The position numbers were made by a program, and so were the translations under genes. A DNA stretch of 64,000 nucleotides from Pseudomonadota bacterium (GTDB lineage: Bacteria > Pseudomonadota > Gammaproteobacteria > JAKBBU01): the NCBI GenBank assembly GCA_021808365.1, contig JAKBBU010000003.1, positions 4,685 to 68,684 of the forward strand, written 5' to 3'. Below, piece by piece: positions 22,103-63,782 of the stretch. Position 1 is the stretch's first letter. Every line of letters starts with the position of its first letter. The notes beneath the pieces are model-generated. The model did not search any database and was not told where the DNA came from. It saw only the letters and a list, made by a program, of their open reading frames with translations.

Positions 22103-22220
22103 TGTGTAGGTTGGGTTAGCACAGCCGCTAGGCTGAGCGTAACCCAACAAAAGCACTTTGCAAAAAGGAGAATGTTGGGTTACGCTCGCCCTTCGGTCGT
22201 GCTAACCCAACCTACACTGT
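22103..22220. repeat. REP-like composite palindrome (two inverted GTAGGTTGGGTTAGCAC..GAGCGTAACCCAAC units) filling the glyQ-glyS junction
   Basis: Arms of about 44 bp are near-perfectly inverted. Single units recur at 17622..17668, 7529..7568 and 45789..45812. Confidence 0.8.
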
Positions 22221-22222
22221 TT

Positions 22223-23227
22223 TCATGCCGATACCTTTTTATTTTCTAATAAAGGAAAACCCAATTCTTCACGCACAGCATAATAACGTTCCGCAATCGC
22301 ACGCGCTAAACTGCGTACGCGCAGCAAATAACGTTGACGTTCAGTGACGGAAATGGCATGGCGGGCATCGAGCAAATTAAACGTATGCGAGGCTTTTAAC
22401 ACCATTTCATAAGCAGGCAGGGGTAATTTTAATTCCAGCAAACGTTGGCATTCTTTTTCATAATCTTCAAAATGTTGAAATAACATTGCCGTATCAGCAT
22501 GCTCAAAATTATAAGCCGAACATTCGCGTTCATTTTGTGAGAATATCTGGCCGTAGGTCACTTCATTTCCATCAGGACCATACGTCCATACTAAATCACG
22601 AAAATGATCTTTTCCCTGTAAATACATGGCTAAACGTTCCAGTCCATAGGTGATTTCACCCGCTACAGGCTGACAGACAAGTCCTCCGACTTGTTGAAAA
22701 TATGTAAATTGAGTGATTTCCATGCCATTTTGCCAGACTTCCCAGCCCAATCCCCAAGCACCAAGCGTGGGTGATTCCCAATTATCTTCCACAAAACGAA
22801 TATCATTTTGCAGTGGATCTAGACCAATGGCGCGTAATGAATTGAGATATAAATCCACAATATTGTCAGGAGAAGGTTTTAAGATCACTTGAAATTGATA
22901 ATAATGCTGTAAACGGTTAGGGTTTTCACCATAACGCCCATCCGTCGGGCGACGGCAAGGTTGCGCAAAGGCGGTATTCCACGGCTCTGGCCCAATCGCT
23001 CGCAAAAAAGTGGCTGGATGAAAAGTCCCCGCACCCACTTCGAGATCCAGGGGTTGCATGATCACGCAGCCTTGATCCGACCAGTATTTTTGGAGGGTAA
23101 AAATCAATTCTTGAAAAGTAAGCGGTTGCTTGTTTGTACTCAAGGGGGAGAATCGCGATTCTCCCCCTTGAGAATCCCCCATCGCGTAAGGTTCAGCGGG
23201 AACCGCTGGTGGTTTTTTATTTGACAC
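22223..23227 (-). CDS. glyQ: Glycyl-tRNA synthetase alpha subunit. The 5' end is ambiguous: ATG 23227, ATG 23182 or TTG 23143.
   Basis: [32 protein letters not shown].. aligns with E. coli GlyQ. A hairpin repeat is embedded in the first 25 codons. Confidence 0.85.
23139..23209. repeat. Family-B composite hairpin element lying inside the 5' end of the glyQ ORF
   Basis: ctcaagggggagaatcgcgattctcccccttgagaatcccccatcgcgtaaggttcagcgggaaccgctgg. Confidence 0.8.
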
Positions 23228-23751: not shown

Positions 23752-23788
23752 GGGAACCTTCTAATTAAGTTTTTTACCAGCTTATCCC

Positions 23789-23880
23789 ATTTCTCACATT
23801 AATCAGTTACAGTGAAGGCTGCAGCAATGCCACAAGGCACATTGGTATAGTCTTCACTGTAACTGATTAATGTGAGAAAT
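23789..23880. repeat. 92-bp imperfect palindrome with a CAATGCCACAA core (family A)
   Basis: atttctcacattaatcagttacagtgaag...cttcactgtaactgattaatgtgagaaat. Related copies at 41848..41934, 44011..44107 and 57675..57742. Confidence 0.8.
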
Positions 23881-23940
23881 GAGATAAATCTTACTATAAG
23901 GCAGACAGGGAGGCAAGTAACTGTTAATTTTTTGCTCATT

Positions 23941-26900
23941 TTATATGAAATGGGTTTGTGTCGTCTCATTTCTAAAATCATTACTTTCCTTTTTATCATC
24001 TTTTTCCAAGTTGCTTTTATTGGGTTTATAAGAAGAGGCTGATAAAATAATATTTATATGAGGTATGGGTTGATCTTCACGAGTAACATCTTGATTATTG
24101 TTATTATTTGCTTCTCTCATTCTAACAAAGCGATTGTTATTTTGACCATTAAAAGCCTGATTAAAACAAGATAGGTAAGTTTTAGCTGATTGTAAGATGT
24201 CTAAAATATGACCTCTTGAAATGTCCTCAACAAGGGTATCCAGCTCACCATCTTTCGTGAGGAATGTTGGGGTTTGTTCAGATGCCGCTGCATCATGAGC
24301 CAAGAAATCTGTTAATACATTGAAAGTTGTTTGTTGTACTTTGTTTTTTCTAAGTAAATTGCTAAATTTACTATATTTTTCATCATTATTTAAATTCTTT
24401 AATCCATCACGGATTAAAAGCATCATCATTTTGATGCAGGCTGGAATGTAATGATCTTCTTCTAGCAAAATGTCTTTCTTTTCAGGGTTGTTATAAATAT
24501 ACGTGTGAATAGAAACAAGCATATTAAGTGCATAATTTACATTTTCTTTGGCGATGCTATTAATGTCGGGTTGGATAATATTTTCAAATTGGAAATCTAA
24601 TGGTTGACAATCGAGCAATTCTTCAAAGTTGAGTGTGATTTTGTCGCTGTTATTTAAAGGGATATTTTTCAATTTTTTCGTGATTTTAAAATGATTTTCA
24701 AAAGCGATCAATCCTCGAAGCGACTCAATGAGCGCTTTTATTTTTTCAGGATTATTAAAAAAATTGGTAGAGAACCCATGTTCAGCAGGATGTCTTAACA
24801 AGTTTCGGATCTTATTGGCCTGTCTTAAATAAGAGTCATTTTTAAAAATATTTAAATGATCTGTCGAAAGTTTTTTATCTTGGTGCTGTTTAATTAGCAC
24901 GTCGAAAGCATGAAAAAACTTAAAATTTTGATAGACAATTGCAGCGGGCAAACAACCCATTGGTGTAGAAATTTTTTTTGGATCAATGACCAAAAAGGCG
25001 TGTAGCCGTTCAATATATTGATTTACTAAAGCTTCTTGTTCATGCAAGATGGGTTTGCCAGATTTTTGCTCGATAGGCGTTATACGATTTTTTTTCTTAT
25101 AATGTCTTTTTTCTGTAGAAATTTTAATATTATTAAAATTTTCTGAAAGACGATCTTGTTTTGGAGGAAGCACATGCCAGTATTCTGGATTTTCATATTT
25201 AACTTCATTGAATTTTTCTTCAAGTTTTTCTTCCTCAAATTTTATTTCATCCGGTTTTTTTTGATCATTAACTATTTCTTGTTTTTTTTCTTGATTTAAA
25301 GCTGGAGTGGAGATCTTTGGAACTTCTACTTTGATTTTTTCATTATTAGGCTCTAAACCATCATCTTCTTCAGGATGATCAGCTTGAATGATAGCTTCAG
25401 CAGTTTCTAATTCGCAAGAAATAAATTGTACTTCAAGTTTAAGTTGTTTGACCTGTTCATCTAGATCGGTTGAAACAGCTTGACAAGTTTTAATGAATTT
25501 ATTTAATTGATTTGTTTTTTCTTCTAAGATTTTTAACGTGTCAAGATGTTTTTGTGCGTTTAAAAGGGTATTAATGCGTTCTTCTGATATATGACTGTGC
25601 AATGGAGATAAGATTTTCTGAATGGCTTCAATTTCAATATGTAAATTGTTAATATATTCATCATATTCTAATTTTCCCATTAATTCATTGTTTTTATTTT
25701 TTATTGTTTGAATGGTTTCTTCTAATTTTGTTAGTTTTTCAAGATTTTCTTTTTTTATTTTATATTTCTCTGTGGGTAAAAAGATAATATTTGAATTTTT
25801 AGTGAGCTTTTTAAGCTTATTTGACTGAGTGTCAAGATATTTTTTTGTTTCTTTTTGTTTGTTTTTCATGAGTTCAATTTGTTTGGATGAAAAATTAGTA
25901 TTAGTTTGAATGAACTCAAATTTTGATTTAATGATGGGCCCTTTTTTAAGCAAGTTATTTCCAGTATCTAGTAATTTTTTATGTAAAGTATCGATCGATT
26001 TTTTTCTAATAAAAGAGTTTTTTTTCAAAGTTACAGTGAGATTATTTTTATCATAAGAGGAGATGGCGGTTAAGAAAAAGTCAAGGATCATGTGAAACAA
26101 AGATGTTCGGATGAAAAAAATATTGTTTTTTTCAAAATGAACTCCACAGCCCTTGATGTTAATTTTAAATAATTTATCAATCAAATTCAGGTTGATGAAT
26201 TTTTCTAGAGGTTTAAGTGTTTCTTTAGTGATAGATGTGAATTCTGATTTTTTGTGACTCTTCAATAACTTATTTATTTCTGTTTTGAAAGACGCTTCTC
26301 TTTTGCTAATTGATTGGTTTGGAAAAAAGAGGTTGTCAAGTCGTATTGAATGTTCTTGGGCTTTTAAATGAGCTATTTCTTCAATAAATTTTGTAATATT
26401 TGAATCACAAAAAACATTTTTTTGATCAAGCTGCATTTCTAAGGCGGTTTTTGCAGAAAGATAAAAATCTTTATCTGAGGCATCAAGCATTTTACTCTGC
26501 TTGTAGAGCAAAGTAAACAAACCACCACACCAGAATATAAAAAAAATACTAATCCATGTATGAGAATTTGACCAATAAATCGGTTTGTTTTCTGAAAGAT
26601 ATTGAGTGATTACGTTTTTAAATTTATTTTCAAGATTGGAGTTTTCTGTAAGAAAATTTTCTATCTCTAGAAGGTATTGAGCATTTTTGAGTTCTTTGCG
26701 CGATAAAAATTTACGAAACTGACGAACACTATTTCCTTTCATTTCGGATAGAATTAATTGGCTGAAGAGCGTTCTTGAAAATGTTGTTATTGCTAAAGTT
26801 TTATTTGGTCCACCGTACGTAAAATCAATGGATATTTTTTGGCCATTAAATAAACTGTTTAAAAAAACATTTTCTAAAAAATCCATATAGGTCAATTTTA

Positions 26901-27684
26901 AATTTAAAACGCGATTGTGAAAAGCGATATTGTTTTTTATCTTATCAAATGTTGGGATCACTGTCTGATAATTGATGTTTTGGGGAGGGTTCATTTCGAA
27001 AAAAGCGACGGTGTTAATTAAAAAATCAAAAAATAAAAAGTGGCATTCTAATGAGAAATCGGTTAATAATATGTGTATTGTTTGGATGTCAATTAATTCA
27101 ATGTTAATTGCTTTTTTGTAAGCCAATGATTTGTAAAATGAATTTAAAGATTTTTCAGCGTTTACAGAGTATTCTCGCAAGCTAGAAAATGATGCAATAT
27201 ATTTTTTGGTGGTTTCGTTAGATTCTAAATTTTTAGTTTTTTCTATTTCTAAATCAATGATTGTACGATGTTGGTCAAAAGTAATGGCTGAAAAGTTCAA
27301 AGTATTATTTTCAAATAATAAATTATTATGCTTTAAAAAATCCAGGCTGTTCGATGAGTTTTTTTGACTTGGACTTTCAGAGGCTCTGAAGATAGAAGGG
27401 AGTGCTTGGAAGATGATGGGTAGTATCATAAACAATAAGACAGTGGCAAAAATTAGCGTAAGGATTAAGAGTAAACCCAGTAAAAAATCTTTAGGTTTAA
27501 TTGAACTCTTCGTAGTTTGTCGTGGGCGCAAAATAAAAGGGTTTTCAGAGGGGTGAGAGTGCCGCTCGGATCCATGGTCGCTCTGAGGGGGTTCACGCCC
27601 CGTTGAGCAGAGTACAAATTGATTTTCTACGGATTGTTTAGAGCTCTTTTCTTGATGGTTCGATTGTCTATTCATAGGGTTCAT
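23941..27684 (-). CDS. Large (1247 aa) Asn/Lys-rich protein: N-terminal TM helix, second TM about residue 385, long coiled-coil segments; candidate secreted or membrane effector
   Basis: AT-rich composition, well below that of neighbouring housekeeping genes. Heptad-like K/E/L repeats. Hydrophobic stretches LLGLLLILTLIFATVLLFMILPIIF and WISIFFIFWCGGLFTLLY. Confidence 0.6.
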   Translation of the reverse strand: MNPMNRQSNHQEKSSKQSVENQFVLCSTGREPPQSDHGSERHSHPSENPFILRPRQTTKSSIKPKDFLLGLLLILTLIFATVLLFMILPIIFQALPSIFRASESPSQKNSSNSLDFLKHNNLLFENNTLNFSAITFDQHRTIIDLEIEKTKNLESNETTKKYIASFSSLREYSVNAEKSLNSFYKSLAYKKAINIELIDIQTIHILLTDFSLECHFLFFDFLINTVAFFEMNPPQNINYQTVIPTFDKIKNNIAFHNRVLNLKLTYMDFLENVFLNSLFNGQKISIDFTYGGPNKTLAITTFSRTLFSQLILSEMKGNSVRQFRKFLSRKELKNAQYLLEIENFLTENSNLENKFKNVITQYLSENKPIYWSNSHTWISIFFIFWCGGLFTLLYKQSKMLDASDKDFYLSAKTALEMQLDQKNVFCDSNITKFIEEIAHLKAQEHSIRLDNLFFPNQSISKREASFKTEINKLLKSHKKSEFTSITKETLKPLEKFINLNLIDKLFKINIKGCGVHFEKNNIFFIRTSLFHMILDFFLTAISSYDKNNLTVTLKKNSFIRKKSIDTLHKKLLDTGNNLLKKGPIIKSKFEFIQTNTNFSSKQIELMKNKQKETKKYLDTQSNKLKKLTKNSNIIFLPTEKYKIKKENLEKLTKLEETIQTIKNKNNELMGKLEYDEYINNLHIEIEAIQKILSPLHSHISEERINTLLNAQKHLDTLKILEEKTNQLNKFIKTCQAVSTDLDEQVKQLKLEVQFISCELETAEAIIQADHPEEDDGLEPNNEKIKVEVPKISTPALNQEKKQEIVNDQKKPDEIKFEEEKLEEKFNEVKYENPEYWHVLPPKQDRLSENFNNIKISTEKRHYKKKNRITPIEQKSGKPILHEQEALVNQYIERLHAFLVIDPKKISTPMGCLPAAIVYQNFKFFHAFDVLIKQHQDKKLSTDHLNIFKNDSYLRQANKIRNLLRHPAEHGFSTNFFNNPEKIKALIESLRGLIAFENHFKITKKLKNIPLNNSDKITLNFEELLDCQPLDFQFENIIQPDINSIAKENVNYALNMLVSIHTYIYNNPEKKDILLEEDHYIPACIKMMMLLIRDGLKNLNNDEKYSKFSNLLRKNKVQQTTFNVLTDFLAHDAAASEQTPTFLTKDGELDTLVEDISRGHILDILQSAKTYLSCFNQAFNGQNNNRFVRMREANNNNNQDVTREDQPIPHINIILSASSYKPNKSNLEKDDKKESNDFRNETTQTHFI

Positions 27685-37441: not shown

Positions 37442-38502
37442 AGAACACCTTTTGTACTTGGAAGTTCATAGCCTTGCTGAGTACTTGCTTGACGTAGAGC
37501 TCGACCCACACCTTTAAAAATACTTTCTATCATATGGTGTTCATTTTCACCTATAACTTTAATATGAAGCGTTGCGCCTAGGCTTTGAGCAAACGATCTA
37601 AAAAAGTGAGGGACTAATTCAGTCGGTAATTCACCAATTTTTTCACGTTTGAATTGACCTTCAAAAACAAAAAAAGGGCGGCCACTTAAATCAATCGCGA
37701 TCTGTGCTAATGCTTCATCCATCGGTAAAAGGAACCCATAACGACGGATCCCTAATTTAGAGCCTAGCGCCAGACGTAGCGCTTCTCCGAGTGCGAGTCC
37801 CGTATCTTCAACGGTGTGATGCTCGTCGATGTGCAAATCACCCTCGCAGCGCAGTTGTAAATTCCACCCGGCATGTTTCGCTAATTGTTCGAGCATGTGG
37901 TCAAAAAATCCGAGTTTTGTTTTGATTTGACTACATTCGCGGCCGTCGAGCTTAAGATGAACATTAATGCTTGTTTCATGTGTGTTTCTCTCAACAAGTC
38001 CACAACGAGGCTGACTGATCAATAGCTCTGAAATGGCTTTCCAGCCTTGTTCACGCGAATAAAGTAAGCTTTTGATCCCAATATTTTCAGCCAATTGGAG
38101 ATCAGTTGTCCGATCACCAATCACCCAAGAATTAGATGGATCCATCACACCGTCACGTAAATAATTCGAAACTAGGCCCAGTTTAGGTTTTCTGCAATTG
38201 CAAAGATCTGATTGGAAATGTGGGCAGATCAGTACATCTTCGAACACAATACCCTGACTTTTTAAAAGAGAGAGCAATAAATTGTGCGGAGAATCAAAGC
38301 TAATTTGAGGGAAAGAAGAAGTTCCCAAACCATCTTGATTACTGATCATGACAAACACATAGCCTGCCTGCTTTAAAGCCAATAAAGCGGGAATCACATC
38401 AGGCTCTAATTGAAGTTTTTCAAGATGATCAATTTGTTGATCCAAGGGTTCTTGGATTAGCGTGCCATCTCGATCAATAAATAATACTTTTTTAAAGCGC
38501 AT
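37438..38502 (-). CDS. hisB: Bifunctional histidinol-phosphatase / imidazoleglycerol-phosphate dehydratase
   Basis: HAD motif FIDRDGTL plus IGPD domain. Confidence 0.9.
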   Translation of the reverse strand: MRFKKVLFIDRDGTLIQEPLDQQIDHLEKLQLEPDVIPALLALKQAGYVFVMISNQDGLGTSSFPQISFDSPHNLLLSLLKSQGIVFEDVLICPHFQSDLCNCRKPKLGLVSNYLRDGVMDPSNSWVIGDRTTDLQLAENIGIKSLLYSREQGWKAISELLISQPRCGLVERNTHETSINVHLKLDGRECSQIKTKLGFFDHMLEQLAKHAGWNLQLRCEGDLHIDEHHTVEDTGLALGEALRLALGSKLGIRRYGFLLPMDEALAQIAIDLSGRPFFVFEGQFKREKIGELPTELVPHFFRSFAQSLGATLHIKVIGENEHHMIESIFKGVGRALRQASTQQGYELPSTKGVL

Positions 38503-39610
38503 TTAATACCTCCAGGCAACGTTGATTTTCAAAAGGGGTTCCTATCGTCATTCGAATACAGTTTTCTAAACTGTAGTCTTTGTGACGATTACGTAGGACG
38601 ATTCCATGTTGTATAAAAATTTTCATAACCTGTTGAGCATCTTCAACAGAAAACAAGATAAAATTTGTTTGACTATCCCATGCTTTTTTAATCTGAGGCT
38701 GATTTTTAAATGCGGACATTATTTTATTTTTTTCAAGTTTGATGAGGCTGATTTTTTCTTCAGTTTTCATTAAAGCTTCAGCACTCAGCTGTTGTTCAAC
38801 AAGATTGATGACGGGTTGAGCAATCGGATAAGGTGGAATTACCTTTTTAAGAAGATTGATCAATGCTGGATTAGCCAAGGTTGATCCACAACGCAATCCA
38901 GCGAGCCCATAGGCCTTGGATAGTGTACGTAGGATGATCAAATTGGAATGAATTTTTAAATAAGATGTCAAGCTGGCGCTGTCTGAAAACTCAATGTAGG
39001 CTTCATCGACAATAATTAAAGCTCTATTTTCAAAGATTGTACAAAGTTCAAGAATATCGCTTGTAGATAACAAATTGCCTGTTGGATTATTAGGTGAGCA
39101 TAAAAAAATGAGTTTGGTTGTAGGTTGCCAAGCTTTGAGAATTCCCCTAAGATTTAAAGAAAAATTCTGCTCTTTAATTAATGGAACCGTTAGTACGTGG
39201 GCATTTTGTATCGTTGCGGCCACTTGATACATACCATAGGTCGGTGGGCAAATTAAGATGCTATCTTGGCTTGCGTTGCAAAAAGCTCGAACTAATAGAT
39301 CAATACCTTCATCACTGCCCCGTGTGACGAGTACTTGATCGGTGTTAACGCCGTATAAATTGGATAAAAGATTAATCAAGTTCTTAGGTTGAGGCTCTGG
39401 ATAACGATTGTAGCGATACGGATCATCCCAGGGCGCTTCATTGGCATCGAGCCAAAAATCACCCTGCGAAAAATTACCCTGCCAAAAATTACCCTGCCAA
39501 AAATTACCCTGCCAAAAATTACCCTGAGTTTGTTCGCTTCGAGCTGAGCGATAAGCTTGCATATTCACAATTTCTGGACGCGCTAACGCTAATAATCTAT
39601 TCACGATCAT
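38492..39610 (-). CDS. hisC: Histidinol-phosphate aminotransferase (start probably M15 of the track ORF). Contains an in-frame 15-bp x5 tandem repeat.
   Basis: LARPEIVNMQAYRSAR ... WLDANEAP matches the HisC N-terminus, with (GNFWQ)n inserted between. Confidence 0.85.
   Translation of the reverse strand: MIVNRLLALARPEIVNMQAYRSARSEQTQGNFWQGNFWQGNFWQGNFSQGDFWLDANEAPWDDPYRYNRYPEPQPKNLINLLSNLYGVNTDQVLVTRGSDEGIDLLVRAFCNASQDSILICPPTYGMYQVAATIQNAHVLTVPLIKEQNFSLNLRGILKAWQPTTKLIFLCSPNNPTGNLLSTSDILELCTIFENRALIIVDEAYIEFSDSASLTSYLKIHSNLIILRTLSKAYGLAGLRCGSTLANPALINLLKKVIPPYPIAQPVINLVEQQLSAEALMKTEEKISLIKLEKNKIMSAFKNQPQIKKAWDSQTNFILFSVEDAQQVMKIFIQHGIVLRNRHKDYSLENCIRMTIGTPFENQRCLEVLNAL
39451..39525. repeat. 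Tandem repeat, 15 bp x5 (gccaaaaattaccct), in-frame within hisC, encoding QGNFW units
   Basis: Three perfect and two diverged copies, visible directly. Confidence 0.9.
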
Positions 39611-40907
39611 TCTCCGTAGATAAGCGAATATCAACCGCATTTTTATGTGCATCTAAACTTTCCAAGCGGGCTAATTCACAAATGGTGGGTGCTAATTGAG
39701 TGAGCCCTGTACGCGTTAATTCTTGAAAACTGATGGTTTTCATGAAATCACGCACAGACAAACCACTTAATGTTTTAGCAAAGCCATAAGTAGGTAATAC
39801 GTGATTCGTACCGCTGGCATAATCACCAGCTGATTCGGGTGACCAAGGCCCTAGAAAAACAGAGCCTGCAGCATGGATCGCATCCATATAAACTCGAGGC
39901 TGGGTCACTTGTAAAATTAAATGTTCAGGGGCATAAGCATTGGCAATAGCAATGGCTTCCATTAACGTTTCAACGAGAATAGAACAGCTATTCTCAAGGG
40001 CGTTTAGTGCAATGGCAGCTCTAGGTAATAATTTAATTTGTTGGGATAATGCACACTGAACACGATCAATAATATTCTCATCTGTGCAGACTAAAAAGAC
40101 TTGTGAGTCGGGACCATGTTCAGCTTGAGATAGAAGATCGGCCGCAATAAATTCAGGGTTGGCGTTTTCATCTGCAATGACCATTACTTCAGAAGGGCCA
40201 GCCGGTAAATCATAATCAGCGCCATTGGGATCTTGTGCAACCAATAACTTTGCCTGTGTCACCCAGGCATTGCCTGGGCCAAAAATCTTGTCAACCTTGG
40301 GTATTGTTTCGGTACCATATGCCATGGCAGCGATAGCTTGAGCTCCACCTAATTTATAAATGGTTGTGATATTGCAAAGTTTTGCAGCCATTAAAATGGC
40401 TGGATTGATATTGCCTTGTTGATCAGGGGGGGAACATAAGATGCGATTTTGGCAGCCTGCAATTTTAGAAGGCACACCTAACATTAATACACTTGAAATC
40501 AAGGGCGCAGTTCCTCCAGGAATATAAATCCCAATTTTATTCAAAGCACGCGGTTGATTTTCACAAAGAACACCAGGCGCTGTTTCAACGCTGAATGCAT
40601 TTAGTATTTGTGGTCCATGGAAATGGGTTAAACAGTTTATGGCTTGATTTAAAGCGTCTAAGGTTTGAGGTGCAATTTGTTCTTGGGCTTGTTCAAATTC
40701 AGCCGGGCTGACTTGAAAAGAGGTAAGGTCAACACGATCATACTGTGAGGTAAATTGACGCAAAGCGATATCGCCCTTGTATTTGACTTCATCAATGATT
40801 GTTTGTACTTGAGTTTTAAAGGCGTGATCATTTTTTCTCAGAGGTCTTTGCAGCTTCTCAGCCTGTTCTTTTATAGATAAATTATTCCAAATAATAGGAT
40901 TAAGCAT
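39597..40907 (-). CDS. hisD: Histidinol dehydrogenase (start probably MLNPIIWNNL)
   Basis: Full-length similarity to HisD; 8-bp overlap with hisG. Confidence 0.9.
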   Translation of the reverse strand: MLNPIIWNNLSIKEQAEKLQRPLRKNDHAFKTQVQTIIDEVKYKGDIALRQFTSQYDRVDLTSFQVSPAEFEQAQEQIAPQTLDALNQAINCLTHFHGPQILNAFSVETAPGVLCENQPRALNKIGIYIPGGTAPLISSVLMLGVPSKIAGCQNRILCSPPDQQGNINPAILMAAKLCNITTIYKLGGAQAIAAMAYGTETIPKVDKIFGPGNAWVTQAKLLVAQDPNGADYDLPAGPSEVMVIADENANPEFIAADLLSQAEHGPDSQVFLVCTDENIIDRVQCALSQQIKLLPRAAIALNALENSCSILVETLMEAIAIANAYAPEHLILQVTQPRVYMDAIHAAGSVFLGPWSPESAGDYASGTNHVLPTYGFAKTLSGLSVRDFMKTISFQELTRTGLTQLAPTICELARLESLDAHKNAVDIRLSTENDRE

Positions 40908-41577
40908 AACAGGCCTCCTGGGTAGAAATTCGATCAAGAAATATTTGTAAAATCGCTCGTTTTTCTTTTGAGCAGAGTCGCTTTGCTTGAATGAGAGCGG
41001 CCTCGCTCTTAAAAACAACCTCAACTTCTCGTAAGTTATTAGATTTTAAGGTACGTCCTGTAGAAACAAGGTCACAAATAGCATCAGCGATGCCAAGGCG
41101 AGGTGCAATTTCTACAGAGCCTGAAAAAGGAACAATGTTGATGTTAAGGTTTTTTTGTTTCAAAAAATTTTCTAAAATATTGGGATAAGACGTTGCTATC
41201 TTGCAGTTTTTGAGTGTGTTTATCGATTGATAATTAAATTGTTCGGGAACGGCAAGTGAAAGGCGACACAAGGCAAACCCAAGATTAGAAACAATTTCTA
41301 AATTGTAGGTTGTACTTGGCACATTTTTTCCAAACGCTTGCTCTTGCAGCACATTACTGCCCACGATCCCAAAGTCACAAAAACCAGAGGCAATTAAATT
41401 CGGAATATCATCATCGCGGACGAATAAGACATCTAAAGGAAAGTTATCGCTGTGACAAAATAATTGTTCTTTATGGGTAGATACTTTAATGCCACAGTCA
41501 GTGATGAAATTTAAAGACGCTTCATTGAGTCGGCCTGACTTTTGAATGGCAATACGGATCCGATTTTGATTTGTCAT
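40900..41577 (-). CDS. hisG: ATP phosphoribosyltransferase, short form (225 aa)
   Basis: Lacks the C-terminal regulatory domain of long-form HisG. No hisZ in the window. Confidence 0.8.
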   Translation of the reverse strand: MTNQNRIRIAIQKSGRLNEASLNFITDCGIKVSTHKEQLFCHSDNFPLDVLFVRDDDIPNLIASGFCDFGIVGSNVLQEQAFGKNVPSTTYNLEIVSNLGFALCRLSLAVPEQFNYQSINTLKNCKIATSYPNILENFLKQKNLNINIVPFSGSVEIAPRLGIADAICDLVSTGRTLKSNNLREVEVVFKSEAALIQAKRLCSKEKRAILQIFLDRISTQEACYA

Positions 41578-41847: not shown

Positions 41848-41934
41848 TTCTCATATTAATCGAGTACAGAGAAGGATGCACCAATGCCACAACACGCATT
41901 GGTGCATCCTTCTCTGTACTCGATTAATATGAGA
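41848..41934. repeat. 87-bp palindrome, family A (loop CCACAACACG), in the divergent hisG / MFS promoter region
   Basis: ttctcatattaatcgagtacagagaaggatgcaccaatg..cattggtgcatccttctctgtactcgattaatatgagaa. Confidence 0.8.
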
Positions 41935-41958
41935 AAGGCAGCATCATAGGGATTTCGC

Positions 41959-44005: not shown

Positions 44006-44010
44006 GAGAT

Positions 44011-44107
44011 TTAGGCGCGTGATTGCATAGTGACAGGAAAGGCTGCACCAATACGTGTTCTGGTATTGGTGCAGCCTTTCCTGTCACTATGCAATCATGC
44101 GCCTAAA
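44011..44107. repeat. 97-bp palindrome, family A, in inverted orientation, between ihfB and rsmJ
   Basis: ttaggcgcgtgattgcatagtgacaggaaaggctgcaccaata..tattggtgcagcctttcctgtcactatgcaatcatgcgcctaa. Confidence 0.8.
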
Positions 44108-44127
44108 TCATGAAAAGTAGGTGCTGG

Positions 44128-47786: not shown

Positions 47787-47934
47787 TTAAGACTTCTTTC
47801 TGAAACCAAGAATTTTGTGCAAGTTCAAGGCGCATGGCCTTCGAACAGCGGAGTTTATTGGGCATAAATGAGCAGCGGAGAAGGACATGCAACATAGAAA
47901 TTGCGCAAAAGGCGATGGTTTCGAAAGAAGTCGG

Positions 47935-51016: not shown

Positions 51017-51072
51017 TTATCGCGATGGGGGATTATTAAGGGGGAGAAACGCGAGTTCTCCCCCTTAATTGC
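51017..51072. repeat. GGGGGAGAA..TTCTCCCCC hairpin element (family B), inverted copy, upstream of rpsL
   Basis: cgcgatgggggattattaagggggagaaacgcgagttctcccccttaa. Other copies at 15254..15322 and 23139..23209. Confidence 0.75.
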
Positions 51073-51125
51073 GAGCCGAGGCTTTGCCTTGGCGAAGCAT
51101 TTGAATAGTAACGCCGGAGTTATCA

Positions 51126-55727: not shown

Positions 55728-55767
55728 CGATAAGAAGATGAAATATCGGATTTATTTTTTTCGTCAT

Positions 55768-55824
55768 CCCGGGATTTAATGGTTCTTAGCGAGTACTCTC
55801 GCTTAGAACCACTAAATACCCGGG
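55768..55824. repeat. 57-bp palindrome in the rpsJ-rplC spacer, plus a second small hairpin at 55884..55901
   Basis: cccgggatttaatggttcttagcgag tact ctcgcttagaaccactaaatacccggg. Confidence 0.7.
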
Positions 55825-55928
55825 ATCCAGAAAGTAAAAAAAGATTTTTTCATTAACAGAAGAAATCTTTTTTATAAGACTGGATTCCCGCCTCCGCGGG
55901 AATGACAGCAATGTGTGAGGTTTTTAAA

Positions 55929-56603: not shown

Positions 56604-56745
56604 GTGAAGTTAAGAGAACGTTCAATGTTGAGTCAAGGTTGGACGAAAAATTGACGAAAAGGGGCGCAGTGTATAAGGACATACATGAGCACTTTGAGGC
56701 AATTTTTCGTTCAAGATTGACCAACAGTGGACGTTCCCCTAAAGA
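56604..56745 (+). mobile_element. MITE-like element of about 140 bp with about 18-bp terminal inverted repeats, copy 1 (rplC-rplD spacer)
   Basis: GAGAACGTTCAATGTTGAG ... CAACAGTGGACGTTCCC. About 85-90% identical to copy 2 at 61344..61487 and to copy 3 (inverted) at 63103..63236. Confidence 0.8.
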
Positions 56746-56757
56746 GGAACAATCACA

Positions 56758-57375
56758 GTGGAATTACAATTAAGACAGTCCGACGGAACACAAGGCGGCA
56801 TGATCAGCCTGTTGGATGATGCATTTGCTCAACCCTTCAACGAAACTTTGGTGCACCAAATCATTACAGCTTATCGTGCGGCTGCACGTGCAGGTACAAA
56901 AGCTCAAAAAACACGCGCCCAAGTTCGTGGCGGCGGTGCAAAACCTTGGCGCCAAAAGGGGACAGGTCGTGCTCGTGCAGGAACAAGTCGTAGCCCGCTC
57001 TGGCGTAAAGGTGGCGTGATTTTCGCCGCCGTACCCAGAGATTATACGCAAAAAGTAAATAAGAAAATGTACCGTGCAGCGATGCGGTCCATTGTGTCTG
57101 AACTGATTCGCCAAGAACGCATTTCAATTGTTGAATCATTTGAAGTTGAAGAGCCTAGAACTAAAGCCATGTTAGCGAAATTAAAAAATTTCGCCTTCGA
57201 TGGTGGTTTGATCATCACCGATTACGTGAGTGACAACCTTTGGTTGGCAACACGCAATTTATTTAAAATTGATATCTGCGAAGCGCATGAAGTTGATCCG
57301 TACACCTTGGTTCGTCATGAATATGTATTGATTACTGTTGCGGCGCTTAAGCAATTAGAGGAGAGACTGGCATGA
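56758..57375 (+). CDS. rplD: 50S ribosomal protein L4 (GTG start)
   Basis: Collinear with E. coli L4. Confidence 0.9.
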   Translation: MELQLRQSDGTQGGMISLLDDAFAQPFNETLVHQIITAYRAAARAGTKAQKTRAQVRGGGAKPWRQKGTGRARAGTSRSPLWRKGGVIFAAVPRDYTQKVNKKMYRAAMRSIVSELIRQERISIVESFEVEEPRTKAMLAKLKNFAFDGGLIITDYVSDNLWLATRNLFKIDICEAHEVDPYTLVRHEYVLITVAALKQLEERLA

Positions 57376-57665
57376 ATACTGAACGCCTCATGAAGGTCAT
57401 CCTTGCACCGCTCATTTCTGAAAAAGGTAATCGGGTTGCAGAAAAAAATCGTCAGGTTGTCTTTAAAGTAATGCCTTGCGCTAAAAAACCAGAGATTAAA
57501 GCTGCGGTTGAATTGATGTTTGAAGTAAAAGTTGATGCAGTTCGTGTGCTCAACGTAGGAGGAAAGAAGAAGCGCTCTGGGCAGATCCTCGGCCAACGTA
57601 AATCTTGGAGGAAAGCTTATGTTTCCTTGCAAGAAGGGCATGATATTAATTTCGCAGATTTGTAA
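57372..57665 (+). CDS. rplW: 50S ribosomal protein L23
   Basis: 97 aa; position and motifs. Confidence 0.9.
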   Translation: MNTERLMKVILAPLISEKGNRVAEKNRQVVFKVMPCAKKPEIKAAVELMFEVKVDAVRVLNVGGKKKRSGQILGQRKSWRKAYVSLQEGHDINFADL

Positions 57666-57674
57666 CGAGAAAGA

Positions 57675-57742
57675 GTATCAGTACCAGGGAAGGTTACATC
57701 AATACCACAACAGTATTGGTGTAACCTTCCCTGGTACTGATA
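57675..57742. repeat. 68-bp palindrome, family A (CAATACCACAACAG core), in the rplW-rplB spacer
   Basis: tatcagtaccagggaaggttacatcaatac cacaacag gtattggtgtaaccttccctggtactgata. Confidence 0.8.
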
Positions 57743-57773
57743 GATTCTAAGATAAAGTAAAAAGGTAGTTAGC

Positions 57774-58601
57774 ATGGCTATTAGAAAACTAAAACCGACT
57801 TCGCCAGGCCGACGCGGTGTTGTTGTCGTTTTGCGAGATCACCTCCACAAAGGTGAACCGCATGCGCCATTACTAGAAACACTGTCAAGCACAGGTGGCC
57901 GTAACAACAATGGTCGTATCACGGTTCGCCATCAAGGCGGTGGCCACAAACGTCACTACCGTGTTATTGATTTCAAGCGGAATAAAGATGGTATTCCTGC
58001 AAAAGTTGAACGTTTAGAATATGATCCAAATCGTAGCGCGCATATCGCCTTGGTTTTATACCGCGATGGTGAACGCCGTTATGTGATTGCTGCGAAAGGT
58101 ATGAAGGTCGGTGATGAAATCCAATCCGGCGTTGATGCGCCGATCAAACCTGGAAATTGTTTACCACTTAGAAATTTACCTGTAGGTAGCCAAATTCATT
58201 GTTTGGAAATGCGACCAGGCAAGGGTGCGCAACTTGCTCGAAGTGCAGGTGCTGCGGTTCAGTTGGTTGCTCGGGAAGGTGCTTACGCAACGATTCGGTT
58301 ACGTTCTGGCGAAATGCGGAAAATTTCTGTAGAATGTCGGGCTACCCTCGGTGAAGTTAGTAATTCCGAACATAATTTGCAACAATTTGGTAAAGCTGGG
58401 GCAAAACGTCATCGTGGAATTCGGCCTACTGTGCGCGGTGTTGCGATGAACCCGGTTGACCATCCTCATGGAGGTGGTGAAGGCCGTACCTCGGCTGGGC
58501 GACATCCTTGCAGTCCATGGGGCCAACCCACGAAGGGCTATAAGACTCGTCGTAATAAACGGACGACTCAGTGGATTGTTCGCCGTCGCGATCGTAAATA
58601 G
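57774..58601 (+). CDS. rplB: 50S ribosomal protein L2
   Basis: 275 aa, ..DHPHGGGEG.. Confidence 0.95.
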
Positions 58602-58615
58602 TAAGAGAGAAGTTT

Positions 58616-58909
58616 ATGTCACGTTCACTAAAGAAAGGTCCGTTCATTGATAATCACCTTCGCATTAAAGTTGAGAAGGCTCAAGCAACAAGTGATAAAC
58701 GGCCGATCAAAACATGGTCACGTCGCTCAACGATTTTGCCAGAAATGGTTGGGTTGACCATCGCTGTACACAATGGGCGTCAACATGTCCCTGTATTCAT
58801 CACTGAAAACATGGTGGGTCATAAGCTTGGTGAGTTCGCTGCAACGCGTACCTTTAAGGGGCACTCTGGTGGCGATAAGAAAGTTAAAGCAGGCGCTAAA
58901 GCTAAATAA
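58616..58909 (+). CDS. rpsS: 30S ribosomal protein S19
   Basis: [11 protein letters not shown]. Confidence 0.9.
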
Positions 58910-58946
58910 AGCCAAAGGCGAGGGCCAAAAAAATCTAGAGGGCATG

Positions 58947-59282
58947 ATGGAAACGCAAGCAATACAAAAATACGTTCGAATTTCTGCGCAAAAAGCGCGG
59001 TTAGTGGCTGATCAAGTTCGTGGTAAAACAATCGCGAGAGCATTTGATATTTTATCGTTTAGTCCTAAGAAAGCAGCTGTTTTAATCAAGAAGGCCTTGA
59101 GTTCTGCTGTTGCAAATGCAGAGCATAACGATGGTGCAGATATCGATGAATTAGTGGTTTCAACGATCTGTGTGGATGAAGGTCCTTCCTTAAAGCGAAT
59201 GAGTCCTCGTGCAAAAGGCCGTGGTAATCGCATTGTGAAAAGAACCTGTCATATTACTGTCAAAGTGAGTGATGTTCGTTAA
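58947..59282 (+). CDS. rplV: 50S ribosomal protein L22 (start METQAIQ)
   Basis: Collinear with E. coli L22. The track ORF is over-extended upstream. Confidence 0.9.
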
Positions 59283-59303
59283 TGTAGTTAAAAAGAGAAC
59301 TTT

Positions 59304-59972
59304 ATGGGTCAAAAAGTAAATCCAATTGGCATTCGTCTCGGTATCATCCGGGAAGCCGATTCAAAATGGTATGCGGGTTCAAAGAATTTTGCACGTATGC
59401 TTCATGAAGATATTTTAGCACGTCGTTGCCTCGAGCGCGATCTTGCAGCAGCAGGTATCAGCCGTGTTCGTATTGAACGGCCCACACGGGAATCGGCTAA
59501 AGTCACAATTTTGGCAGCACGTCCTGGCGTGATCATCGGTAAAAAAGGCGAGGATATTGAACGTATCAAGTCGAAAGTTAGCAAGATCCTCGGTGTTCCT
59601 GCTCATCTGACCATTGAAGAAGTGCGTAAGCCAGAAATGGATGCACGATTAGTTGCACAAGCGATCACGCAGCAATTGGAAAAACGGATTATGTTCCGTC
59701 GCGCAATGAAACGTGCGGTGACGACAGCGCTTCGTCTCGGTGCCTTGGGGATTAAAGTTTGTGTATCAGGCCGTCTGGGCGGTGCAGAAATCGCGCGTAC
59801 AGAATGGTACAGAGAAGGGCGAGTTCCTTTGCATACATTCCGTGCTGATGTTGATTATGGTACAGCTGAAGCAAAAACAACCTATGGCATCATTGGTGTG
59901 AAGGTTTGGATTTTTAAGGGTGAGATTCTCGAAAAAAATGCTGGAACAGCAAAAGAAGCTCAAGAGAACTAG
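59304..59972 (+). CDS. rpsC: 30S ribosomal protein S3
   Basis: [13 protein letters not shown]. Confidence 0.95.
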
Positions 59973-59996
59973 AACTACAGGCTCAGGAACAACACT

Positions 59997-60410
59997 ATGT
60001 TGCAACCAAAACGTACAAAATATCGCAAGCAAATGAAGGGCCGTAATCGGGGACTTGCAACCCGTGGTTCTTCAGTGAGCTTTGGTGAATTTGGCTTGAA
60101 GGCGATCGATCGAGGTCGTTTGACTGCACGTCAAATTGAAGCAGCGCGTCGCGCGCTGACCCGTCACATTAAACGGGGTGGTAAGGTTTGGATCCGTGTA
60201 TTTCCGGATAAACCCATCACGAAAAAACCTTTAGAAGTTCGGCAAGGTAAAGGTAAGGGTTCGGTGGAATATTGGGTTGCTCAAATTCAGCCGGGTCGCA
60301 TCTTGTTTGAAATTGAAGGTGTATCCCGTGAACTTGCGGAAGAAGCGTTTACGCTGGCAGCCGCAAAATTGCCTTTTAAAACGACCTTTGAGCAGCGAAC
60401 GGTGATGTAA
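59997..60410 (+). CDS. rplP: 50S ribosomal protein L16
   Basis: [12 protein letters not shown]. Confidence 0.95.
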
Positions 60411-60607
60411 TGAAAGCAAAAGAATTACGTGTAAAAACAGTGAATGAATTAGAAACCGAGTTGCACGCTTCATTGCGCGAGCAGTTCAATCTACGGATGC
60501 AAAAAGCAGGTGGGGCACTCAAGCATAATCATCAGATTAAGCAAGTACGCCAGCGCATTGCAAAAATTAAAACCATTATTACTGAACTTCAGAGGGCCGC
60601 AAAATGA
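60410..60607 (+). CDS. rpmC: 50S ribosomal protein L29
   Basis: MKAKELR.. Confidence 0.9.
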
Positions 60608-60870
60608 GCGAGATCGTTTCAAATCATCGTATCGTTACGGGTACTGTTGTCAGCACAAAAATGGATAAGTCGATCGTCGTTCGTGTTGAGCGTCGTGTGA
60701 AACATCCGATTTATGAAAAAGTGATGAATCGTTTCACAAAGCTTTATGCACATGATGAAAAAAATGAATGTGGTCTTGGAGATATCGTAGCACTGCAAGA
60801 ATGCCGTCCTCTTTCAAAAATGAAACGTTGGCGTTTAGTTGAAATTGTTGAGAAAAAGACTGCAGAATAA
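60604..60870 (+). CDS. rpsQ: 30S ribosomal protein S17
   Basis: 88 aa; position and motifs. Confidence 0.9.
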
Positions 60871-60957
60871 AAACTGCTGGCTCTGTTTGGTGCCGCGGTG
60901 TATACTGCGGCACCTGCTTTCTTAAGGGTTAAGCAAAAGCAAATCCGAGGAGTTGAA

Positions 60958-61326
60958 ATGATACAAATGGGAACCGTGCTGACTGTCGCTGACAATAGCG
61001 GCGCGCGGCAGATCATGTGCATTAAAGTGTTTGGCGGTTCTAAGCGTCGTTACGCAAGAGTCGGTGACGTGATTAAAGCATCTGTAAAAGTGGCTACGCC
61101 CAATGGTAAGGTTAAGAAGGGTGATGTGGTCAATGCAGTTGTGGTTAGAACACGTCAGGCCGTTCGTCGGACAGATGGTTCTGCACTACGCTTTGACTCC
61201 AATGCGGGTGTGCTTCTGAATAATCAGATGCAGCCCGTCGGTACTCGTATTTTTGGCCCAGTGACACGCGAACTGCGCGGTGAGAAGTTTATGAAAATTG
61301 TCTCATTGGCTGAAGAAGTGCTTTAA
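60958..61326 (+). CDS. rplN: 50S ribosomal protein L14 (start MIQMGTV, GAGGAG SD)
   Basis: Collinear with E. coli L14. Confidence 0.9.
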
Positions 61327-61343
61327 GTTTTAATAGGAAATAG

Positions 61344-61487
61344 TGAAGTTAAGAGAACGTTCAATTTTGAGCTCAGGTTGAACGAAAAATACTCGAAAAG
61401 GGGCGCAATGTATAGGACATACATGAGCACTTTGAGAGGATTTTTCATTCAAGATGAGCCAAAAGTGGACGTTCCCATAAAGAGGCT
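61344..61487 (+). mobile_element. MITE-like element, copy 2 (rplN-rplX spacer)
   Basis: Same TIRs and interior (AAAAGGGGCGCAATGTATAGGACATACATGAGCACTTTGAG) as copy 1. Confidence 0.8.
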
Positions 61488-61495
61488 GAGTGGTA

Positions 61496-61825
61496 ATGCA
61501 AAAAATTAAACAAAATGATGAAGTCATCATTCTTACAGGAAAAGATAAAAAACAGCGTGGAAAAGTACTTCGTGTCGTCAAAGCTGCTGGCAAAGTCGTT
61601 AAAGTTTTGGTAGAAGGGGTTAACAAAGCAAAGAAGCATGTTCGTCCTAATCCTCAACTCAATCAAAAAGGTGGCATTATTGAGCGCGAAATGCCGCTTC
61701 ATGTCTCCAATGTTGCTTTGTATAATCCGGCAACAAAGAAAGCTGATCGCGTAGGTATTCGTATTTTAGAAGATGGTCGGAAAGTTCGTTATTTTAAATC
61801 CAATGGCGAAATTATAGACCTTTAA
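61496..61825 (+). CDS. rplX: 50S ribosomal protein L24
   Basis: [18 protein letters not shown]. Confidence 0.9.
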
Positions 61826-61837
61826 AGAGTGAGTGTT

Positions 61838-62380
61838 ATGGCAAGATTAAAAGAGTTCTATCGCGATACCGTCGTCAAGCAATTGATGGACAGGTTTGCT
61901 TACAAGAACATTATGCAAGTTCCGCAGATCACGAAGATTACCCTCAATATGGGTGTTGGTGAAGCGGTGGCAGATAAGAAAGTGATGGATGCTGCAGTTG
62001 CCGATATGGCCGCTATTGCAGGTCAAAAGCCTATTGTCACCTTGGCGCGTAAATCGATTGCCGGGTTTAAAATTCGTGAAGATTGGCCTATCGGTTGCAA
62101 GGTAACCTTGCGACGCGATCGCATGTATGAATTTTTTGATCGATTAGTTTCCATTACTTTGCCACGTGTACGTGATTTTCGGGGGATGAGCCCCAAGTCA
62201 TTTGATGGCCGTGGTAATTACAGCATGGGCTTGCGCGAGCAGATCGTGTTTCCTGAAATCAATTACGACAAAATTGATATGTTGCGTGGTTTGGATATTA
62301 CGATCACGACATCAGCAAAAACAGATGAAGAAGCAAGGGCGTTACTTACCGCTTTTGGTTTTCCGTTTAAAGAAAAGTAG
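61838..62380 (+). CDS. rplE: 50S ribosomal protein L5
   Basis: [10 protein letters not shown].. Confidence 0.9.
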
Positions 62381-62390
62381 GAGAGGAAGC

Positions 62391-62696
62391 TTGGCTAAAA
62401 CATCAATGATAATACGCGACCGTGATCGTACTGCGATGGTCAAACGCTTTGCCGCAAAGCGCAAAGCGTTGAAAGAAAAAACAGGCAATATCCACTTGGA
62501 TTATGATGAGCGGTTAGCGGCACAACAGGCTTTGCAAGATCTTCCTCGCGATGCGAGCCCAAGCCGCCAACAACGTCGTTGTGTACTCTGTGGGCGAACC
62601 CACAGTGTGTTTCGTAAATTTGGTTTATGTCGCATTCATCTTCGGGAATTTGCCATGAATGGTAAGATCCCTGGAATTAAAAAAGCGAGCTGGTAG
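62391..62696 (+). CDS. rpsN: 30S ribosomal protein S14 (probable TTG start; the track ORF is over-extended)
   Basis: (M)[23 protein letters not shown] vs E. coli S14. Confidence 0.8.
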
Positions 62697-62706
62697 GAGT
62701 AGAATA

Positions 62707-63102
62707 ATGAGTATGCAAGATCCAATCGCGGACATGTTGACACGTATACGTAATGCCCAGGCTGTAGAAAAAAAAGGTGTTTCCATGCCTTTTTCTAAGC
62801 TAAAAAAAGCAATTGCCCAAGTTTTAAAAGATGAAGGTTATATTGCTGACGTGAGCGTTGAGGAGCATGAGGGCAAGCGTGATTTAAGAATTGCACTTAA
62901 ATATCATCAAGGGCGCCCTGTGATTGAAATGATTAAACGCGTTAGCCGCCCAGGCCTTCGTATTTATCGTGGCAGCGATGCAATTCCACGAGTTTTGGGT
63001 GGTTTAGGTATTGCGATTGTATCGACCCCCAATGGCGTTATTACGGATCGCGAAGCGCGTCGTCTGCGTGTAGGTGGGGAAGTATTGTGTTTAGTTTCGT
63101 AG
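62707..63102 (+). CDS. rpsH: 30S ribosomal protein S8
   Basis: [17 protein letters not shown]. Confidence 0.9.
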
Positions 63103-63236
63103 GAGACGTCCATTTTTGGCCAATCTTGCACGAAAAATTTCTTCAAAGTGCTCATGTATGTCCTATACACTCCGCGCTTTTCATTAATTTTTCGTGCAAC
63201 CTTGGCTCAAAACTGAACGTCTCCCAACAGAGGTAG
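63103..63236 (-). mobile_element. MITE-like element, copy 3, in inverted orientation (rpsH-rplF spacer)
   Basis: Reverse complement matches copies 1 and 2 along its whole length; begins directly after the rpsH stop. Confidence 0.8.
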
Positions 63237-63242
63237 GTTAAA

Positions 63243-63782
63243 ATGGCATCAAGAGTAGGGCGCAACCCAATCACCTTGCCAAAGGGCGTTGAAGTGAAGC
63301 TCGATGGACAAAAAATTGCTGTTAAAGGCAGCAAAGGACAATTAAACCTTGAAATTCATTCTGTCATTGGTGTTTCTATGGAAGGCAATGTATTGCAATT
63401 CCAAATGAAAGAAGACAGCATCGCAGCGAATGCAATGATGGGTACAATGCGTGCCTTGACCAATAATATGGTCAAAGGTGTTCATGAAGGTTTTGAGCGC
63501 AAGCTCAAACTCGTTGGTGTAGGTTATCGAGCTCAAGCTAAAGGTAATATTTTAAATTTAGCACTTGGTTTTTCACATCCAGTTGATTATGAAATTCCCC
63601 AAGGCATTACGATCGAAACACCAACACAAACTGAAATTACGGTTCGTGGAATTGATAAACAATTAGTAGGCAGTGTCTCAGCAAAAATTCGGGCCTATCG
63701 TCCTCCTGAACCTTATAAGGGGAAAGGAATTTGTTATTCGGATGAAAAGATCATCCGCAAAGAGACCAAGAAGAAGAAATAA
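63243..63782 (+). CDS. rplF: 50S ribosomal protein L6
   Basis: 179 aa. Confidence 0.9.
   Translation: MASRVGRNPITLPKGVEVKLDGQKIAVKGSKGQLNLEIHSVIGVSMEGNVLQFQMKEDSIAANAMMGTMRALTNNMVKGVHEGFERKLKLVGVGYRAQAKGNILNLALGFSHPVDYEIPQGITIETPTQTEITVRGIDKQLVGSVSAKIRAYRPPEPYKGKGICYSDEKIIRKETKKKK

Follow-up and report, generated by a model that had tools for sequence, protein, structure and literature searches.

The DNA analyzed here is a stretch of 64,000 nucleotides (contig JAKBBU010000003.1 of assembly GCA_021808365.1, a gammaproteobacterium), which as a whole is called the window. It contains the S10/spc ribosomal-protein operon, and three spacers of this operon each harbor a copy of a short hairpin element of about 125–145 nt: the spacers rplC-rplD (175 nt), rplN-rplX (169 nt) and rpsH-rplF (140 nt), whose positions were confirmed by gene calls. 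The three close copies, termed c1, c2 and c3, emerged from direct reading and repeat finding across the 64-kb window. A preliminary description of this DNA had proposed a mobile element at these three positions, one copy being inverted; direct reading, repeat finding and gene calls bear out the positions, and c3 indeed lies on the minus strand. The copies and the ribosome-binding sites next to them are as follows.

56604–56747, plus strand: copy c1 in the rplC-rplD spacer (175 nt), covariance model score 146 bits, hairpin proper at about 56616–56736
56742–56747, plus strand: rplD ribosome-binding site AAGAGG with start codon GTG at 56758–56760, unpaired and directly 3' of the c1 hairpin
61343–61485, plus strand: copy c2 in the rplN-rplX spacer (169 nt), covariance model score 139 bits, hairpin at about 61355–61475
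61480–61485, plus strand: rplX ribosome-binding site AAGAGG with start codon ATG at 61496–61498, directly 3' of the c2 hairpin
63100–63228, minus strand: inverted copy c3 in the spacer rpsH-rplF (140 nt), covariance model score 136.5 bits on the minus strand
63229–63233, plus strand: rplF ribosome-binding site AGAGG with start codon ATG at 63243–63245, directly 3' of the c3 hairpin

Over a core of 131 nt the pairwise identity amounts to 85.5% for c1 and c2, 78.9% for c1 and c3 and 75.0% for c2 and c3, and this measured range replaces the 85–90% initially estimated. The window contains an invariant 21-mer, GGACATACATGAGCACTTTGA, in exactly three places, at 56677 and 61415 on the plus strand and at 63143 on the minus strand, while shuffled sequences lead to an expectation of zero. 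Two motifs, GRGAACGTYCAMTKTTGRG at the termini and AGGTTGNACGAAAAAT in the inner arms, are present in both arms and within the window are confined to these elements; the pattern GRGAACGTYCA... is found at both termini of every copy. c1 and c2 are in direct orientation and c3 is inverted. The sequence common to c1 and c2 extends beyond the hairpin, by about 10 nt (GTGAAGTTAA) on the left and by TAAAGAGG on the right, and c3 carries neither of these flanks. The foot of the c3 hairpin adjoins the stop codon TAG of rpsH (63100–63102).

Each copy folds into a single long imperfect hairpin of 44–47 base pairs, the whole element being an imperfect palindrome of nearly its full length. On the mRNA strand the minimum free energies are -57.3 kcal/mol for c1, -52.0 kcal/mol for c2 and -56.4 kcal/mol for c3, corresponding to z-scores of -8.2, -7.1 and -7.7 against dinucleotide shuffles. 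The long hairpin given in the preliminary description thus holds, but the 18-bp terminal inverted repeat that it treated as a distinct unit is just the foot of this stem. In every copy, the inverted c3 included, the element's own plus strand is the more stable one; for c3 the mRNA strand reaches -56.4 kcal/mol versus -64.5 kcal/mol on the opposite strand. G-U counts are symmetric between the strands. That the plus strand folds better whichever way it is transcribed fits a repeat at the DNA level and not an RNA selected on the mRNA strand, and neither the folding energies nor the G-U counts of the copies gave any sign of selection on the transcribed strand.

We compared the three junctions with those of the nearest relative for which DNA was available, L085, whose gene order is the same and whose L4 protein is 70% identical; the closest comparison is therefore L085 and not a relative of the same genus. 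In L085 the junctions rplC-rplD, rplN-rplX and rpsH-rplF measure -1, 23 and 9 nt, and 67–82 further loci from gammaproteobacteria have medians of -1.5, 15 and 9 nt, in line with the short junctions assumed at the outset. The accompanying claim of an expansion to about 170 bp applies to the first two junctions (175 and 169 nt), that of c3 being 140 nt long. At rplN-rplX an empty and a filled site can be aligned directly: the sequences flanking c2, GTTTTAATAGGAAATA ... CTGAGTGGTA, match the undivided spacer GTTAATAGAGAAGCGAGTGAACC of L085. No copy of the element was detected by nhmmer in the comparison gammaproteobacterial loci or by the covariance model in the 35 loci that were also scanned with it. 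The comparison of these junctions with relatives, which had been suggested beforehand, therefore shows the insert to be absent from L085 and the other gammaproteobacterial loci. Because the junctions are compact and the element is absent there, the copies are lineage-specific insertions and not an ancient or conserved leader.

Two other spacers came up during this comparison. An apparently expanded rplC-rplD junction in L086 turned out to be an artefact of an internally duplicated L4 open reading frame (ORF) of high G+C content and holds no insert. This ORF of 290 amino acids, at 416–1288 of the ENA ERZ27251435 contig, comes from a high-GC organism, and its duplicated L4 reflects either a chimera of the assembly or a genuine partial duplication. 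The rplN-rplX spacer of L012, L019, L031 and L050 (Marinobacterium, Amphritea and relatives) is conserved, with a length of about 100 nt. This Oceanospirillales-type spacer contains a terminator-like hairpin, AAAACGCC...GGCGTTTTT, followed by GAGCATGAGAGGGTAGTAGGAA, is unrelated to the element studied and may be a lineage-specific attenuator or leader.

Five junctions of the S10/spc operon in all are expanded to 108–201 nt in this organism and measure -1 to 38 nt in L085. The family described here occupies three of them, the remaining two being filled by other hairpin repeats. At rplW-rplB (108 nt; 16 nt in L085) lies a copy of a second hairpin family with a perfect 30-bp stem (-55.8 kcal/mol, z -8.8), and the rpsJ-rplC spacer at 55728–55928 (201 nt; 38 nt in L085) is made up of nested palindromes, CCCGGGATTTAATGGTTCTTAGCGAG...CTCGCTTAGAACCACTAAATACCCGGG and then GGGATCCAGAAAG...A/T-rich stem...CTGGATTCCC, which are unrelated to the element. 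These unrelated hairpins indicate that the genome carries several families of palindromic repeats, of which the operon has taken up at least three kinds.

Members of the family were also found away from the ribosomal genes, one in the window and one in another organism.

47793–47930, plus strand: diverged fourth member in the rho-ubiD spacer, a hairpin of 138 nt (-54.8 kcal/mol, z -6.7)
L091 (JGI contig OBEQ010004990.1), 3877–4007: relative copy between tdk (thymidine kinase) and a gene for an MFS transporter, same strand, nhmmer 3e-18

The fourth member lies 8.7 kb upstream of the close copies, which span 6.6 kb, so that all four copies of the window fall within 15.5 kb; a search for further copies, likewise suggested in advance, has thus yielded one outside the interval first described. 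In its apex of 27 nt (47848–47874), 23 positions agree with the c3 apex, a match with a window-wide P of about 1e-5, and of the four that deviate two together make up a single compensatory change in the stem; the inner arms differ. nhmmer matched this member weakly. The covariance model, R1, matched it on the plus strand only. This model rewards any long hairpin and also matches the unrelated hairpins of the second family, on both strands, and only strand-asymmetric matches of R1 are informative. The longest ORF of ubiD begins with an ATG at 47887, inside the fourth member; gene callers may over-extend ubiD, and homology (MKYADLRDF...) indicates the ATG at 47935 as its true start.

A degenerate pattern of the inner arm returned three loci from the JGI metagenomes, two of them chance matches and one a true relative, the copy in L091, and the family is therefore present in at least one other organism. 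The exact 21-mer core had no match in GTDB representative genomes and none in JGI metagenomes, and the element patterns had none in viral contigs. Loci of the operon from other samples gave identical nhmmer scores, which suggests that the copies they hold are probably identical. On account of the tdk-MFS copy in L091 and the rho-ubiD copy, the family is not tied to ribosomal-protein genes.

The divergence between members is distributed unevenly along the element. Between the window copies and L091 identity is 74–78% in the interior and 28–65% at the ends. Conservation extends over the inner arms (TTGNACGAAAAAT / ATTTTTCNTNCAA) as well as the apex (GAGTGTAT-loop-ATACATGAGCA) and, when all five members are compared, is highest in the apical 21–27 nt. 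Roughly the outermost 20 nt of each arm differ in sequence between the window copies and L091 yet remain complementary. Among the four well-aligned members compensatory double changes keep the symmetry of the inverted repeat at 14 of 44 stem pairs. Such a pattern fits a symmetric constraint on the arms, exerted either by pairing or by one protein that recognizes both arms. It is atypical for a classical MITE (a miniature transposable element with inverted repeats), whose termini are the best-conserved part. A conserved center is likewise a feature of ERIC elements.

At all three junctions the Shine-Dalgarno sequence of the downstream gene starts 3–5 nt past the last stem pair, much as the preliminary description had it. 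The 3' flank of c1, TAAAGAGG, is itself the Shine-Dalgarno sequence of rplD, and c2 supplies that of rplX in the same way. As the homology of c1 and c2 continues past the hairpin, the copied unit included the Shine-Dalgarno sequence now used by rplD and rplX.

We also assessed whether the element encodes a protein or a defined RNA. The copies share no conserved reading frame, and six-frame translations of all three gave nothing at E<=10 in a collection of 5.8 billion protein clusters and no overlapping ORF. Neither a sigma-70-like promoter nor an intrinsic terminator was seen in or next to the three elements. The stems are followed by CCCCUAAAGAGG or CCCAACAGAGG and not by a U-tract; an intrinsic terminator or attenuator was rejected, as none of the three elements offers a site with a GC-rich stem and a U-tract. 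A scan of the window at Rfam gathering thresholds returned two tRNAs only, and an E-value scan of the region 50.7–64 kb returned only chance matches to miRNA-like hairpins far below gathering scores. The small RNA considered as an alternative in the preliminary description is thus not supported by a promoter, a terminator, an Rfam match or a folding advantage of one strand that follows transcription. That the conserved apex is expressed as a small RNA in its own right appears most improbable: the apical 21–27 nt are indeed the best-conserved segment of the five members, but besides the missing promoter, terminator and Rfam match, the inverted copy would express the opposite strand.

We consider it likely that the copies belong to a family of interspersed repeats not described before, which are short, non-coding and almost palindromic and of the ERIC/Correia-like kind. 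They entered the intercistronic spacers after the split from the nearest sampled relative; their spread may have been due to a transposase acting in trans or to recombination, and near-neutrality may account for their fixation. The preliminary view of a mobile or recombinational element instead of a leader is sustained insofar as an inserted repeat is found in both orientations and in ribosomal as well as non-ribosomal contexts. Its designation as a MITE is sustained in part: the element is small and non-coding, has terminal inverted repeats and is missing from empty sites in relatives, but target-site duplications are not significant and no partner insertion sequence was found in the DNA covered, so that the label of a MITE in the strict sense, mobilized by a transposase, is unproven.

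Several observations weigh against an interspersed mobile repeat. No copy has a significant target-site duplication: the longest flanking direct repeats are 4–5 nt (shuffle p 0.065–0.81), none of at least 7 nt flanks any copy, and the best one, GTAGG around c3 (p about 0.065), is present singly in the empty site of L085. No transposase or solo end with matching sequence was found in the 64-kb window or in plasmid records; the window holds no further end motifs or insertion sequences with matching ends, and a blastn search of 72,556 plasmids gave no match. The flanks common to c1 and c2 might have arisen by local duplication or conversion instead of transposition. Between organisms the termini are less conserved than the interior, which is unusual for ends recognized by a transposase. 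A high copy number is also unproven, with three plus one copies in about 70 kb of DNA covered, since no ORF in the protein clusters overlaps the copies and the 21-mer is absent from GTDB and JGI.

Another explanation is local spread within the operon, by duplication, gene conversion or recombination instead of transposition; the family would then be a kind of spacer cassette, as opposed to a mobile element. In its favor, the homology of c1 and c2 runs from GTGAAGTTAA through the Shine-Dalgarno sequence TAAAGAGG, past any inverted repeat, all close copies lie within 6.6 kb, and the lack of significant target-site duplications and of a transposase partner fits such a course as well. We nevertheless hold it to be unlikely, as c3 is inverted and lacks the flanks of c1 and c2, a diverged copy sits 8.7 kb upstream in the rho-ubiD spacer, and the relative in L091 occupies an unrelated locus of another organism with ends that are different yet complementary. 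A similarly low probability is given to an RNA module selected by the host, with the hairpins serving as processing or insulator elements between the cistrons of the ribosomal-protein mRNA, possibly as RNase III sites or as stabilizing stem-loops that set the yields of L4, L24 and L6 after the loss of coupling. Three of the four window copies lie in S10/spc with the Shine-Dalgarno sequence of the next gene free 3–5 nt past the stem, c1 and c2 supply this sequence themselves, interior and apex are better conserved than the termini, and the copies are old (15–25% diverged) with the full stem kept in all of them and probably identical copies, by their equal nhmmer scores, in the loci of other samples. 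Against this stand the inverted copy, whose mRNA strand is the less stable one, the symmetric G-U counts, the members at the unrelated loci tdk-MFS and rho-ubiD, and the unrelated hairpin families that fill other junctions of the operon. The clustering itself is suggestive, no more: by a rough count from ORF lists the operon accounts for roughly one third of the gene junctions in the window, which makes three out of three close copies within it an event of about 5%.

An origin from the Tn3 family, as a miniature element (TIME-like) mobilized by a Tn3-type transposase, strikes us as very improbable. The arms begin with GGGR and contain TTGNACGAAAAAT, which we take to resemble GGAACGAAAAC in the inverted repeat of Tn3/Tn1000. 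When the arms are aligned locally with the 38-bp inverted repeat of Tn3, a match of 9–12 nt (GAACGAAAA) results with p 0.006–0.08 against shuffles, values that are weak and post hoc, and the 5-nt repeat GTAGG flanking c3 and single in L085 could be added on this side. The arms would, however, need about 10 extra bases relative to the 38-bp repeat, target-site duplications are not significant, and the 72,556 plasmids without a blastn match are rich in Tn3-family transposons. TIMEs are usually single-copy through transposition immunity and produce AT-rich target duplications of 5–6 bp (PMC4133298), whereas three copies of the present element lie within 6.6 kb.

In the operon the copies lie within the transcription unit and contain no terminator. 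If they are interspersed repeats of the ERIC/Correia-like kind, each would become part of the ribosomal-protein mRNA and form a stem-loop of about 45 bp. Such a fold would loop the insert out and leave the upstream stop codon and the downstream ribosome-binding site spatially near to each other. The downstream gene would keep (c3) or receive from the element (c1 and c2, through TAAAGAGG) an unpaired Shine-Dalgarno sequence, rplD, rplX and rplF would be initiated independently, and the coupling by overlap at rplC/rplD that is found in L085 would be lost. By analogy to Correia and ERIC elements the stems are plausible substrates of RNase III or barriers to 3' exonucleases (PMC10969869).

Few bacterial gene arrays are as compact and as conserved as the S10/spc operon, which depends on translational coupling and autoregulation for its expression. 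The insertions therein offer a natural experiment: how much structured 'junk' can a polycistronic mRNA of ribosomal proteins carry, and do stems that loop themselves out preserve expression? They also provide a new repeat family for the annotation of poorly sampled, probably intracellular, gammaproteobacteria. A more far-reaching idea, for which we see only a slim chance, is a domesticated modular intercistronic hairpin with its own Shine-Dalgarno sequence that replaces overlap coupling in S10/spc and directs segmentation by RNase III or differential mRNA stability. A host protein would in that case recognize the apex and inner arms (TTGNACGAAAAAT ... GAGTGTAT-loop-ATACATGAGCA), and this would account for the better conservation of the interior relative to the termini.

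Besides the element itself the window contains further repeats. The second hairpin family, of which one copy fills the rplW-rplB junction, has three more copies at non-ribosomal sites and is unrelated to the element.

57676–57742, 23782–23887, 41848–41935 and 44008–44109: second hairpin family, about 70–100 nt, near-perfect, core ...CAGGRAAGGYTRCAYCAATAC / GTATTGRTGYARCCTTYCCTG...

Hairpins of a third family, GGGGGAGAAnCGCG...TTCTCCCCC, are located at 15216–15321, 23130–23208 and 51021–51107, the last of these within the MatE-rpsL spacer of 383 nt, immediately upstream of the str operon. Arms of the type GTTGGGTTA...TAACCCAAC define a further family at 17616–17669 and 22170–22223 and at 18620–18700 of L001, where the copy lies downstream of rplQ at the end of the alpha operon. 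A tandem repeat of 15 nt, GCCAAAAATTACCCT, with five to six units at 39451–39526, is situated near the junction of the minus-strand ORFs 38492–39652 and hisD (39597–41024).

The host is a poorly sampled (uncultured) gammaproteobacterium, judging from its low best L4 identities of about 60% among GTDB species representatives and of 70% for the nearest protein in the collection of 5.8 billion clusters. Proteins identical to its L24 and L4 were found solely in metagenome assemblies of ENA and Logan; an MFS transporter of the window was also found in the NCBI metagenome-assembled genome GCA_027437445.1. The window further encodes a eukaryote-like Ser/Thr protein kinase (12582–14219; Pkinase, 2.7e-43), an ORF of 1247 amino acids without Pfam match in an island of 30–33% GC (23941–27684), a giant FG-GAP-repeat protein (29–3775) whose gene reaches upstream into a gene of 3380 amino acids in L093, and many MFS transporters and large orphan proteins. 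From the kinase, MFS and orphan-protein content one might guess at a Legionellales-like intracellular (host-associated) lifestyle.

Elements of the same kind are ERIC, Correia/NEMIS, RPE and the Coxiella QMITEs. Structured RNA inside ribosomal-protein operons is also known from the leaders of these operons (S10/L4 leader, spc/S8 site), which are lineage-conserved, fixed in orientation and tied to the target of a specific regulatory protein. A lineage-wide, orientation-fixed leader had been named beforehand as the finding that would contradict insertion, and it was not found: the element is absent in relatives and c3 is inverted. The occurrence at non-ribosomal loci and the lack of an Rfam model likewise led us to reject a ribosomal-protein leader. 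The QMITEs resemble the element as hairpin repeats of an intracellular gammaproteobacterium. QMITE1 and QMITE2 of Coxiella burnetii are MITE-like hairpin repeats, located mostly in intergenic regions and 3' untranslated regions and conserved between strains (PMC5896051). QMITE1 measures 300–400 bp and QMITE2 150–190 bp, with direct repeats of 7–11 nt and a GTAG REP core that is the target of IS1111, and no link to ribosomal genes is reported there (PMC5896051). An assignment to the QMITEs was rejected, since the features as described do not fit (no direct repeats of at least 7 nt) and the organism is not Coxiella.

The likeness to ERIC lies in the imperfect palindrome (about 125–130 nt in ERIC), its non-coding nature, its location in transcribed intergenic regions within operons, its occurrence in either orientation and its conserved center. 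There is, however, no sequence similarity and the host lineage differs; a blastn search (word 11, E<=1) of 5,426 complete E. coli genomes, carriers of ERIC, gave no match, and ERIC by sequence was rejected. When co-transcribed, ERIC can alter the fate of the mRNA, and RNase E acts on the Yersinia ERIC; the double-stranded RNA stems of Correia elements are substrates of RNase III (PMC10969869). The Correia/NEMIS elements of Neisseria are hairpin elements of about 100–150 bp with terminal inverted repeats that are co-transcribed with their neighbors, and by this analogy they are probably the best model for the behavior of the hairpins in mRNA. They differ from the present element in sequence, to which they are unrelated, and in that no TA duplication, IHF site or outward promoter was seen here. 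The sequence family is thus new and its location unusual, whereas the kind of element is already known and is not a new type of system.

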